Under the pieces are notes generated by a model, which worked only from the letters and a program-made list of their open reading frames with translations, was not told the DNA's origin and did not search any database. Position numbers and translations under genes: made by a program. From IMG/VR virus record IMGVR_UViG_3300042731_008053: a stretch of 64,000 nucleotides of DNA; one strand, given 5' to 3'. This stretch comes from a virus. Of this stretch, positions 12,423 through 14,936 are shown piece after piece. The stretch's first letter is position 1; each line of letters opens with the position of its first letter.

Positions 12423-13127
12423 ATGAACATAGTGAGCAAATCCTCCCCCGATCCCGAGTACGTGCCCGTCATCTTCATGGCACATCAGCTTCGAGCTGAC
12501 AGTCAAGAAGGAATGCAACACAACATTCACAACGCCAAAGCCTGGTACCAGTTTTTCATCAGGAACTACGACGTCGCGATCATCGCCGACTGGATCTTGT
12601 CGTGTGAGACGCTCGATGACACGGTCGTGGAAGACCGGTTACGTGGGCGACGCTCCAACGCTGTTTTGCTGACACGGTCAGACGAGCTGTGGATTTGTGG
12701 CGGAGACATCTCGTCTGGTATGCGCCACGAAATGCTCACGATGCATGCGTTAGGACGTCCCATTCGACAATTCATCGATCTTGGCTTCGAGCCGCCTGCC
12801 GAGTATGATGCGTCGATCCACAACTTGGCGGAGTACAAAAAAGCGGGTGGTGGACGCAACATGGCAGTACCAGGCCGCTGCATGAAACGTGTTATCTACA
12901 AGGCGCCCGAGCGCGAAGACGATCCCGACTTCGAGGTGAACGTCCCGGTCGGCGATACGGATTTGATTGCGTTGGCGGCGTGGGAAAGCGGTGAGGTCGT
13001 AATGTCGTTCGGTAGCAGTGGGACAGTCGAGGGAGATCTGACGTTGTCGTATGACGAGGCGATGAGACTCGCCAAAGCTCTACTCGATGCGACGGAGGTT
13101 GCAGGATGCAAAGCGTTCAAGGCCTAA
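12423..13127 (+). CDS. hypothetical protein, possibly nucleoside 2-deoxyribosyltransferase-like fold (DUF4406/DUF1937-like)
   Basis: YVPVIFMAH...ADWIL...SDELWICGG..SGMRHEM resembles the Rossmann-like pattern of those families; weak. Confidence 0.45.
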   Translation: MNIVSKSSPDPEYVPVIFMAHQLRADSQEGMQHNIHNAKAWYQFFIRNYDVAIIADWILSCETLDDTVVEDRLRGRRSNAVLLTRSDELWICGGDISSGMRHEMLTMHALGRPIRQFIDLGFEPPAEYDASIHNLAEYKKAGGGRNMAVPGRCMKRVIYKAPEREDDPDFEVNVPVGDTDLIALAAWESGEVVMSFGSSGTVEGDLTLSYDEAMRLAKALLDATEVAGCKAFKA

Positions 13128-13270
13128 TCTTTCTGATTGCGATGTTGATCATTACAGCCGTTAGCGGCATCGTTGCCTATAAGCAGCGGGGTCCGTGGAA
13201 CGGCTTCGGTTTCGTCTTGATCTGTTTGTTCGGCATTACATCGATCACACTCGTCAGGTTGTTTGGATGA
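13106..13270 (+). CDS. small membrane protein (2 predicted TM helices), holin-like candidate
   Basis: Below the ORF-track size cutoff. GGAGG 6 nt upstream of ATG; MQSVQGLIFLIAMLIITAVSGIVAYKQRGPWNGFGFVLICLFGITSITLVRLFG; ATGA overlap with the next gene. Confidence 0.3.
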   Translation: MQSVQGLIFLIAMLIITAVSGIVAYKQRGPWNGFGFVLICLFGITSITLVRLFG

Positions 13271-13434
13271 ACCGTCGTGGTGAGGCAATCGTCTTTCTGG
13301 TTTTATTGTCTACCGCCATTGCAGCGTCGGTGTACTTGTACTTCGCGACGGGGCGTGTAGAGATTCTGATCCCAATCACAGCCGCGATCATTGTCGGCGT
13401 CGTATTCACAATCATCGAAGTTATACTGAGATGA
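13267..13434 (+). CDS. small membrane protein (2 predicted TM helices), holin/antiholin-like candidate
   Basis: Internal ATG of ORF 13195-13434; MNRRGEAIVFLVLLSTAIAASVYLYFATGRVEILIPITAAIIVGVVFTIIEVILR. Confidence 0.35.
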   Translation: MNRRGEAIVFLVLLSTAIAASVYLYFATGRVEILIPITAAIIVGVVFTIIEVILR

Positions 13435-13664
13435 GTGCCGACCTGGTATCCAGACGATCGCGTCAAGGATCAACACCCACACCGTTGTCAATTGGCTACG
13501 TGCGTGGGTTGCCAGGTCACACGTTGCGTGACGTGTTACGGGGTCCGATGTTCCAGTACATTCTGTAACAATCCTGCACCGTTGCCGGAGGCTCGCCTGA
13601 TACTCCGTAAGCGGTCCTACATGTCTGGTAGCATCCGCCGCCAGTAAGACTGAAAGGAATCATC

Positions 13665-14225
13665 ATGCTCGTTCACGCTCTGACTGTCTTCGTGTACCTG
13701 TCCGCTAACGGGGGTGTCGCGACAGCTCCTCCCAAGCCGTATCGCGTTACGGCCACACAGCCGGCGCCCCATCGTGTCGGCACACCACTCAGCGGTCGCT
13801 ATGTACAGACCTGTGAGGCGACGATTTTCTGTTACAAGGGCGATCCCTGGTGTGGCGGCGCAACGCCGTATTTGATGCGTCGCGTTCGTCCTACGGACGT
13901 CGGCGCTGCGCATCGGACGCTGCCGTACGGCACGAAGATCCGTATTACTAACCATCGGACAAAGCTCTCGACAGAAGCGATCATTATCGATCGGGGTCCC
14001 TTCGGGCGCTTGACGAAGCGAGGCGGCTGGTACAACGGCATCGGCTTCTACCTCAAACGTTTACGCGCACGTAAGCCAATACCCACCTCAGGTTGGCGCG
14101 GTTGTTTGGACATCACGCCACGCGTGGGACGTCAAATCCGCCATAACGGTAAAGAGGACGTCACGCTTGAAGTGATCCGGTGGCCTAGACGGCGCCGCAA
14201 ACCCGTCAAAAAGCCTAATACATGA
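13665..14225 (+). CDS. secreted RlpA-like double-psi beta-barrel lytic transglycosylase
   Basis: Signal peptide MLVHALTVFVYLSANGGVATA. AAHRTLPYGTKIRITNHRT...AIIIDRGPF matches the RlpA/DPBB signature. RBS AAAGGAA. Confidence 0.7.
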   Translation: MLVHALTVFVYLSANGGVATAPPKPYRVTATQPAPHRVGTPLSGRYVQTCEATIFCYKGDPWCGGATPYLMRRVRPTDVGAAHRTLPYGTKIRITNHRTKLSTEAIIIDRGPFGRLTKRGGWYNGIGFYLKRLRARKPIPTSGWRGCLDITPRVGRQIRHNGKEDVTLEVIRWPRRRRKPVKKPNT

Positions 14226-14239
14226 TCGCAGCTGCGATC
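14224..14239. promoter_or_regulatory. Operator-like palindrome GATCGCAGCTGCGATC (copy 1 of 4)
   Basis: Perfect 16-bp palindrome 17 bp upstream of ATG 14256, followed by TAGAAT. Confidence 0.5.
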
Positions 14240-14255
14240 GGGTAGAATACAGACG

Positions 14256-14936
14256 ATGCCTGCTGTTCAAGGAAAGACCATTCTTATCGTCGGCGACTCG
14301 CTCTCGTCTCAGAGCAGTAACGGCACTCATACGTACTCTCCCGATCCGAACGTAAACCGTTACGGCTCGCCCGGCGACTTCTTTGGAGCTGCACTCGCGC
14401 GAGCGGGAGCTAGCGTCGTCATCAACGCCAAGGTAGGCCGCTCCGCTCACAGCTTTTTTACACACGAGGGTGGCAGCCAAATCCTGACCAGTTTGGCGCA
14501 GTACGATCCCGACGTTGTCTTTGTCATGTTGGGCACCAACGACCTGGGGCTCGATCTAGGTGTAGATGCGACTCAGATGGCCCGCATTCGAGACGCATTT
14601 CCCAAGGCCGACGTTTGGGGCATCGGGCCGCCCACGCTCGCGCAGGCAACAGAAGCGGCGGCCGTCGCACAGATGATGCAGGGCGTGTTCGGCAATTTCG
14701 TCGATCTGCGTAGCTACACGCGCGACATGGCGCCCGGGTCTGCCTACCGAACCCCTGACGGCGTCCACTTCACAGCAACGGGTGCAAGGCTTGTTGGAGA
14801 TCGTCTCGCTCAAGTGCTCGTAACCAAAAACCATGTTGGCCTAAAGATTGGTGCAGCAGCACTCGCGTTCACAGCACTGGGGCTCGGTCTTTCGTTCATC
14901 ATCGCACGCCGAAATGAGTTACATGAGCGCCAATGA
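14256..14936 (+). CDS. SGNH/GDSL hydrolase with C-terminal membrane anchor
   Basis: ILIVGDSLS (block I), MLGTNDLG (block III), DGVHFT (block V), C-terminal TM GLKIGAAALAFTALGLGLSFII. Confidence 0.75.
   Translation: MPAVQGKTILIVGDSLSSQSSNGTHTYSPDPNVNRYGSPGDFFGAALARAGASVVINAKVGRSAHSFFTHEGGSQILTSLAQYDPDVVFVMLGTNDLGLDLGVDATQMARIRDAFPKADVWGIGPPTLAQATEAAAVAQMMQGVFGNFVDLRSYTRDMAPGSAYRTPDGVHFTATGARLVGDRLAQVLVTKNHVGLKIGAAALAFTALGLGLSFIIARRNELHERQ

Follow-up and report, generated by a model that had tools for sequence, protein, structure and literature searches.

The 64,000-nucleotide (nt) stretch of DNA analysed here in full, referred to as the window (IMG/VR record IMGVR_UViG_3300042731_008053), is part of a 78-kb metagenomic contig from an uncultivated large phage. 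It is phage-like in content, has a G+C content of 55–62% and shows no DNA similarity to GenBank phages. Positions 13106–14936 hold a block of five short, co-directional genes on the plus strand, with ends that overlap or nearly touch, in which small membrane proteins stand beside two putative cell-wall enzymes. The features of this block, together with a separate candidate lysin, are as follows.

13106–13270, plus strand: s1, 54 amino acids (aa), two transmembrane helices joined by a short basic loop
13267–13434, plus strand: s2, 55 aa, two transmembrane helices, an orphan
13435–13647, plus strand: Cys-rich gene, 70 aa, a conserved frame with a GTG start
13665–14225, plus strand: RlpA-like double-psi beta-barrel (DPBB) protein, 186 aa, with profile and fold matches
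14224–14255, plus strand: predicted palindrome promoter/operator, GATCGCAGCTGCGATC followed by 3 nt, TAGAAT, 7 nt and the ATG of the esterase
14256–14936, plus strand: SGNH/GDSL esterase, 226 aa, with a Pfam match and a C-terminal transmembrane helix
52025–52987, minus strand: PG_binding_1 + 3D (MltA/YuiC-type) protein, 320 aa, both domains found by Pfam

The initial annotation had read the block as a lysis cassette of holin and antiholin, secreted RlpA-like endolysin and accessory esterase. The enzyme identities hold; the reading as a lysis cassette is supported only in part, and the holin/antiholin roles are not supported. The open reading frames (ORFs) themselves exist as claimed: s1, the RlpA-like gene and the esterase gene have ratios of non-synonymous to synonymous change (pN/pS) of 0.17–0.52 against relatives, at near-saturated synonymous divergence, and this purifying selection marks them as real genes. 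Translational coupling makes the block part of a long operon that also contains SLOG/YpsA, DUF7768, NUDIX and DUF1653 genes. Its surroundings are those of nucleotide metabolism, with the NUDIX and DUF1653 genes downstream.

The 186-aa protein, whose gene is preceded by an AAGGA Shine–Dalgarno sequence, gives no Pfam match as a single sequence, matches phrog_7930 (1.6e-5) and reaches 25.6 bits (E 1e-5) against the NCBIfam rlpA model TIGR00413, whose cut-off is 82.15. A profile of eight homologues matches PA4485 (PDB code 4avr, E 2e-18) and, with the same profile, residues 287–359 of the hub of cyanophage A-1(L) (E 6.5e-12). The AlphaFold model (predicted local distance difference test, pLDDT, 67 overall and above 85 in the core) superimposes on 4avr_A in Foldseek (TM-score 0.85, E 2.5e-6), followed by kiwellins, expansins and barwin-like proteins. 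Core motifs AHRTLP...DRGPFGR and LDIT are in place, with D109 of DRGPF kept in seven of eight aligned sequences and D149 of LDIT invariant. The protein shares with Pseudomonas aeruginosa RlpA and PA4485 the DPBB core, AHRTLPFG, DRGPF and the (I/L)D(L/I)(S/T) strand. It differs from RlpA in having neither lipobox (a lipobox scan found none, and the leader contains no Cys) nor a matched SPOR domain, the chain ending 14 residues past the last DPBB strand (E163–172), and in carrying an insertion of ~36 aa that follows DRGPFGR, four Cys that are also kept by the closest homologues, and a polybasic tail with KPNT at its end. On profile and predicted fold the 186-aa protein is thus an RlpA-type DPBB protein that lies outside the RlpA family proper, and the earlier RlpA assignment stands at these two levels only, not at those of lipobox, SPOR domain or curated cut-offs.

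The signal peptide once assigned to this protein also calls for correction. Its leader (MLVHALTVFVYLSANGGVATA) is short and weakly hydrophobic, rich in Gly, Ala, Ser and Thr, with a helix at residues 3–13 and a low-confidence linker thereafter; a basic n-region is missing. A homologue from another lineage (contig L086, 52% identical) has the leader, the insertion and the KPNT tail as well. RlpA-like genes in phages are already known; an RlpA-like subtype with this insertion and KPNT tail has, to our knowledge, not been described. A phage parallel is the 'endoglucanase' domain of the A-1(L) baseplate hub gp15 (PDB code 8kea): it too is a phage-encoded RlpA-like DPBB domain, but it forms part of a virion protein of 899 aa that serves at entry, whereas the protein here is small, stands alone and has an export-type leader. 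RlpA is a lytic transglycosylase (PMC6895207), and the RlpA-like domain of the A-1(L) hub lyses Anabaena cells in vitro (PMC10966104).

The membrane-anchored GDSL/SGNH hydrolase of the initial annotation is borne out by its Pfam match (Lipase_GDSL_2, 1.6e-14, 55.2 bits against a cut-off of 32.9), its catalytic blocks and its conserved anchor. Blocks G13-D14-S15, G61, G93-T94-N95-D96 and D168/H171 are invariant or nearly so in 17 homologues. A C-terminal transmembrane helix at about residues 198–216 is followed by a basic tail (IIARRNELHERQ); this helix and its Arg/Lys residues are kept in all 17 homologues, an N-terminal signal in none. There is no room for an N-terminal signal, since residue 8 already opens the first beta-strand, and no extra domain is present. 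The AlphaFold model (pLDDT 82) is a generic SGNH fold with 25 SGNH-type matches in the PDB at E ≤ 1e-3, spread over CE2/CE3 enzymes, sialate esterases, the OatA C-terminal domain, TesA, PAF-AH and G7C gp63.1.

Genomic company is more informative for this family. On contig L174 an esterase homologue lies two genes after an M23 peptidase, and a convergently oriented gene 1.4 kb away encodes a PG_binding_1 + 3D protein with 55% identity (E 1.8e-110) to that of the window; on L175 the esterase stop overlaps the start of an M23 peptidase; on L086 the esterase and an insertion-bearing RlpA-like protein are encoded 6.4 kb apart. A distant homologue (P0028) is fused to LysM. On L089 the esterase follows a gene for a Pel9A-like beta-helix tail fibre. 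In L174 and L089 the family lies beside tail and lysis regions. Because three kinds of peptidoglycan hydrolase recur beside the family in independent lineages, a wall-directed role for the esterase is indicated. The M23 peptidases near it also have C-terminal hydrophobic anchors and no signal peptides. Phage SGNH esterases are known; we know of no description of an SGNH family that keeps a C-terminal anchor throughout and occurs in company with peptidoglycan hydrolases, nor of the wider pattern of wall enzymes that combine a C-terminal anchor with the lack of a signal peptide.

Clusters of signal-less, C-anchored proteins with basic tails occur on several of these related large-phage contigs (L086 7161–10232; L174 3653–4174; L175 6657–7208; L090 8687–9520); they include two M23 peptidases, and L086 has four more such proteins. 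Pfam and PHROG scans of the esterase neighbours in L086, L089 and L090 returned DUF5661 only; proteins of this family are repeatedly found close to the esterase (L086, L089 and L175).

The separate protein at 52025–52987, correctly credited with PG_binding_1 and 3D domains, lies on the minus strand, a correction to the initial annotation. Both domains exceed their Pfam cut-offs (PG_binding_1, 7e-8, 33 bits against 23; 3D, 1.8e-6, 28.5 bits against 23.8), the motif VNDTGGGIYGAHFDVF is present, there is no signal peptide and the gene has a strong AAGGAG Shine–Dalgarno sequence. PHROG endolysin matches cover residues 5–69 only, the binding domain, leaving the catalytic part outside described endolysin families, and no close relatives were found among IMG/VR and GenBank phages. 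This protein is the best candidate for the main endolysin.

Several observations concern the neighbourhood of this gene. No holin is recognisable beside the 3D lysin, either here or in L174. On the same strand and 1.2 kb upstream, the product of a 118-aa ORF (54141–54497, minus strand) has some three hydrophobic helices, and its C-terminal tail (PAPEEDDGSTEKE) is charged and acidic; its sole match is phrog_781 (3.4e-4), and by shape it is a better candidate for a classical holin than s1 or s2. The DNA directly upstream of the 3D gene (53015–53105) holds 7.2 tandem copies of a 13-bp unit (GGGTGCCGACCGG), which may represent protein-binding sites or iterons; a second array, five copies of an 11-bp unit (GGGCCCAACTG), lies at 41887–41942. 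Two genes downstream, 49745–51496 (minus strand) encodes a 583-aa HerA/FtsK-type ATPase (DUF87, HerA_C) with two C-terminal winged-helix repeats, which matches phrog_2666, 'terminase large subunit', at 3.5e-18.

A palindrome of the form GATCGC-N4-GCGATC gives the esterase its own predicted promoter, in agreement with the GATCGC operator proposed earlier. The copy at 14224–14239, GATCGCAGCTGCGATC, is a perfect 16-bp palindrome that ends 16 nt 5' of the esterase ATG. Five matches with no or one mismatch occur in the window against 0.37 expected: perfect copies at 14224, 19910, 27253 and 55674 and a one-mismatch copy at 29749. A variant lies at 53700, and the related contigs carry further copies (L002 at 9312, 14422 and 18914; L004 at 1082 and 3342). 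Three of the four perfect copies (14224, 19910 and 27253) are followed after 3–8 nt by a −10-like hexamer (TAGAAT, TACAAT) and, 6–9 nt later, by an ATG; at 55674 the first ATG is ~50 nt downstream and such a hexamer is not evident. With the ATG only 6–9 nt past the hexamer, the resulting mRNAs would be near-leaderless. The same architecture precedes the esterase in L002 and L003 and the Cys-rich gene in L004, and further genes of the window, of L002 and of L004 have it as well. Within the window this promoter type is common to the esterase, a C-anchored 388-aa protein and a 156-aa protein. The gene for an 820-aa coiled-coil protein also has a palindrome upstream, but the closely spaced −10 hexamer and ATG are missing there. 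The pattern suggests that GATCGC-N4-GCGATC is a phage-specific promoter/operator driving near-leaderless mRNAs. Scans for sigma-70 promoters and terminators over 11–17 kb found sites rarer than in shuffled sequence.

GATC itself is commoner in the window than expected (502 against 240). The 388-aa protein (19943–21109, plus strand) has a C-terminal transmembrane helix and basic tail after PPKTG, with a weak LPXTG-anchor match (E 0.023), and is a second C-anchored protein in the esterase's apparent regulon. PDB sequence searches with the 820-aa, 388-aa and 3D proteins gave nothing useful. A leaderless-type promoter is notable in a phage genome that also encodes a homologue of initiation factor 3 (IF3); IF3 discriminates against leaderless mRNAs.

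The two small proteins at the head of the block do have two strongly hydrophobic segments each, as first described: 19 residues long with Kyte–Doolittle means of 2.1–2.6, at residues 6–24 and 36–54 of s1 and 8–26 and 35–53 of s2. s1, which starts 22 nt inside the upstream gene and has the loop KQRGPWNG, is kept in the relatives L002, L003 and L004 at 52–59% identity (pN/pS 0.41–0.46); its relatives number three proteins in a database of 5.8 billion, confining it to a small clade. s2 fits exactly between its neighbours, through an ATGA overlap with the s1 stop and a TGAGTG junction with the GTG of the Cys-rich gene, and is absent from L002, L003 and L004. Because the s1 stop directly abuts the Cys-rich gene in all three, s2 is, as read from these junctions, either a gene-sized insertion here or a loss there. 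An exhaustive HMMER search with s2 against 1.8 billion representatives found no true homologue, only spurious matches to very long proteins. Tandem duplication as the origin of the s1/s2 pair was considered and rejected, the two having no mutual similarity.

Neither protein matches a holin family in Pfam, PHROGs, NCBIfam or PADLOC. The charged, hydrophilic C-terminal tail of the holin type is missing from both, s1 ending in TLVRLFG and s2 in IIEVILR at the end of the second helix. s1 is predicted to be N-out/C-out because its only basic residues sit in the loop; the charge distribution of s2 points to N-in/C-in, as in class II holins. With no family match in four libraries, no charged tail, an s1 limited to one clade and an s2 that is unique, the holin/antiholin assignment is not supported, and s1 is a holin candidate only by size and position. 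Nor could spanins be found: there is no ORF with a lipobox in any frame at 12.4–15.7 kb and no spanin-like gene in or beside the block. Three ORFs elsewhere in the window have envelope-type signals, none of them near either lysin. The sole i-spanin-like one (39338–39742, minus strand, 134 aa), far from the block, has an N-terminal transmembrane helix and a Gln/Lys-rich, coiled-coil-like segment; a 31-aa ORF (41662–41757, minus strand) has a perfect lipobox, LALSAC; and a 312-aa ORF (47546–48484, plus strand) has the lipoprotein-type signal FFVSAC.

The small membrane-protein genes were also said to be followed immediately by the RlpA-like gene, which is not the case: one gene, the conserved Cys-rich frame at 13435–13647, separates the latter from s2. 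Its product has the pattern C-x4-C-x2-C-x4-C-x2-C-x4-C-x4-C and a basic C terminus, is 84% identical in L002 (pN/pS 0.20) and 73% in L004, and has no Pfam or PHROG match; possibly it is a small zinc-binding protein. That this interval is a gap or a known RNA was rejected on the conserved protein frame and on Rfam and tRNA scans, which were empty across the window. Upstream of s1, the gene at 12423–13127 (plus strand) joins a domain of the nucleoside 2-deoxyribosyltransferase-like DUF7768 family with a C-terminal part of 80 aa; the two parts are separate genes in L002, L003 and L004, and the difference could be a gene fusion or a frameshift between relatives.

The wider context was surveyed by a bulk family scan of 62 further window proteins, which found no capsid, tail, holin or endolysin families; early and late modules can therefore not be separated by annotation in the window. 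No capsid, portal or tail families were recognised across its 64 kb, and PADLOC matched the block to no defence system. Genomes scanned for a host or for related prophages yielded generic RlpA cores only, mostly from Alphaproteobacteria, and no close relative.

Taken together, we tentatively prefer to read the block as a conserved accessory cell-wall toolkit, an exported glycan-strand cleaver plus a de-O-acylating esterase that would assist the 3D endolysin, and not as a demonstrated holin–endolysin switch. The DPBB protein would be exported by way of its leader and would cleave or loosen glycan strands in the periplasm in the manner of a lytic transglycosylase, while the membrane-held esterase would strip the wall glycan of O-acyl groups, of which O-acetyl is the likeliest. 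Once de-O-acetylated, the wall would be more open to attack by both the RlpA-like and the PG_binding_1 + 3D proteins, because lytic transglycosylases need a free C6 hydroxyl on N-acetylmuramic acid (MurNAc). The 3D protein would then act as the main endolysin. s1 and s2 may gate or time the process, which is the weakest step of the scheme.

This reading is favoured because the RlpA-like DPBB and 3D families are both classed as lytic transglycosylases, a class blocked by 6-O-acetylation, and because a cellular remedy is known in Ape1. Two reports state that 6-O-acetylated MurNAc is not cut by lytic transglycosylases, that de-O-acetylation is a prerequisite for these enzymes and that the SGNH esterase Ape1 provides it in cells (10.1101/2021.09.23.461501, PMC1199599). 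The phage esterase shares with Ape1, an O-acetyl-peptidoglycan esterase, the SGNH catalytic domain and, in the proposed scheme, the logic of esterase before lytic transglycosylase. It differs in location and make-up: Ape1 is secreted to the periplasm and carries a CBM35 module, whereas the phage protein has neither signal nor CBM35 and is C-anchored. Mycobacteriophage LysB offers a second comparison, being a soluble, cutinase-like alpha/beta hydrolase of the mycolyl-arabinogalactan link in a LysA–LysB–holin cassette. In both cases an esterase is encoded beside a peptidoglycan hydrolase, as an accessory lysis enzyme in the case of LysB and putatively so here; LysB is soluble and not of the SGNH type, whereas the protein here is an SGNH enzyme with a C-terminal anchor.

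A number of points count against the scheme. The substrate of the esterase is not assignable, because its fold matches are spread over generic SGNH relatives, and a signal-less, C-anchored catalytic domain could face the cytoplasm and never meet peptidoglycan. The adjacency of RlpA-like gene and esterase is limited to this clade, and since the whole region is syntenic in the relatives, the shared gene order says little about a link in function. The DPBB protein may also bind or loosen the wall rather than cut it: Jorgenson and colleagues reportedly found in 2014 that P. aeruginosa RlpA cuts peptide-free glycan strands only and that E. coli RlpA is inactive.

The strongest competitor, although improbable, is that the block is after all a complete lysis cassette, with s1 and s2 as a holin/antiholin or pinholin pair that depolarises the membrane and thereby releases or activates the RlpA-like protein as a secreted or signal-anchor-release (SAR) endolysin, and with the esterase as accessory lysin. 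Phage 21 provides the precedent, its two-helix pinholin S21 being encoded upstream of R21, a wall enzyme with a weakly hydrophobic N-terminal segment. The block shares this pinholin–SAR endolysin geometry, but it has no sequence similarity to S21/R21, no charged tail and no spanins, one unrelated gene intervenes and the context does not resemble that of a late cassette. Membrane or exported proteins account for four of six consecutive genes at the block compared with about one gene in eight across the window, which a cassette would explain; coupling to the DUF7768 gene and the NUDIX and DUF1653 genes that follow speak for a different setting. The class II-like topology of s2 is set against its absence from relatives that keep the enzymes, so that s2 is not essential to the module, and against the N-out/C-out prediction, missing tails and lack of holin family matches noted above. 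No rival holin is recognisable beside the 3D lysin, yet spanin-like genes are missing from the block as well, and the esterase has a promoter of its own, of a type common to unrelated genes.

Phage RlpA-like genes elsewhere bear on the same question. In the Pseudanabaena cyanophage PA-SR01 an RlpA-family gene has been proposed, by inference, as a lysis gene (PMC10286775), which agrees with a cassette. Of six other phages, nonetheless, five have their stand-alone RlpA-like gene in a replication or early region, as the following list shows.

L007: RlpA-like gene directly after DNA polymerase
L005 and L086: RlpA-like gene adjoining D12 methyltransferase or 3'-phosphoadenosine 5'-phosphosulfate (PAPS) reductase genes
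Sinorhizobium phage phiM12: gp249, RlpA-like gene in the early region
Tunturiibacter phage Tunturi_4: gp31, RlpA-like gene after ribonucleotide reductase (RNR) genes; an endolysin is annotated separately, on the opposite strand
L006: RlpA-like gene beside terminase, the sole such case of the six

Such placement, in replication, nucleotide or early regions and with a separate endolysin in Tunturi_4, argues against the cassette. phiM12 gp249, Tunturi_4 gp31 and PA-SR01 ORF83 resemble the protein here in being small DPBB proteins outside structural modules; they differ in having 28–35% core identity and no insertion.

Somewhat less probable again is that the esterase is not a wall enzyme at all, faces the cytoplasm or acts on acyl groups of lipids, lipopolysaccharide (LPS) or capsule, and adjoins the RlpA-like gene by an accident of synteny. 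One source annotates it as lysophospholipase L1-like, and its fold matches include TesA, PAF-AH and the tailspike esterase gp63.1 of G7C; its position after the beta-helix tail fibre gene in L089 and a promoter that it has in common with non-wall genes would suit such a role. These hints have to be set against the recurrence of the family beside M23 peptidases, a 3D lysin and an RlpA-like gene in separate lineages, and against the LysM fusion of P0028. The lack of a signal peptide, which would also fit, loses force because the neighbouring M23 peptidases are C-anchored and signal-less too, yet must act on peptidoglycan.

Least probable is early envelope remodelling unrelated to terminal lysis, in which the exported DPBB protein and the membrane proteins would be made early and would alter wall or septum (for example for division block, cell enlargement or superinfection exclusion). 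In its favour, genes of early type (SLOG/YpsA, DUF7768, NUDIX and DUF1653) surround the block, stand-alone RlpA-like genes sit in replication/nucleotide regions of five other phages and cellular RlpA works at the division septum (PMC6895207). Against it, the esterase family occurs beside tail and lysis regions in L174 and L089 and no known exclusion protein resembles the block proteins.

A broader and distinctly speculative extension of the toolkit reading is that this group of large phages lyses its hosts with a non-canonical kit, made up of RlpA-like and 3D DPBB enzymes, C-tethered and signal-less SGNH esterases and M23 peptidases, and tail-less two-helix proteins in place of holins; within it the esterase would unmask O-acetylated peptidoglycan. 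Lysis is unannotated in most uncultivated large phages. If the esterase does de-O-acetylate peptidoglycan for lysins of the lytic-transglycosylase type, phages would have an answer to a widespread wall modification against which lysozymes fail too, and the enzyme pair would be ready for use in engineered lysins against O-acetylated pathogens. The occurrence of C-anchored, signal-less wall enzymes in several lineages raises the question of how phage enzymes reach the wall. Should the block instead be expressed early, it would suggest that the phage remodels the wall of its host in the course of infection, a process on which there has been little work.

Other genes of the window are of separate interest. 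An 881-aa protein (7489–10134, plus strand), kept in L002, matches the Shoulder domain of the major vault protein (MVP; 5.5e-26) and a Vault_3 repeat (7.6e-11); an MVP-like protein is unusual in a phage. Translation-related genes, typical of large or huge phages, encode the IF3 homologue (22563–23099; 1.6e-41 against E. coli IF3), an RF-1/PCRF protein with GGQ (25781–26425) and a peptide deformylase (54494–55174).

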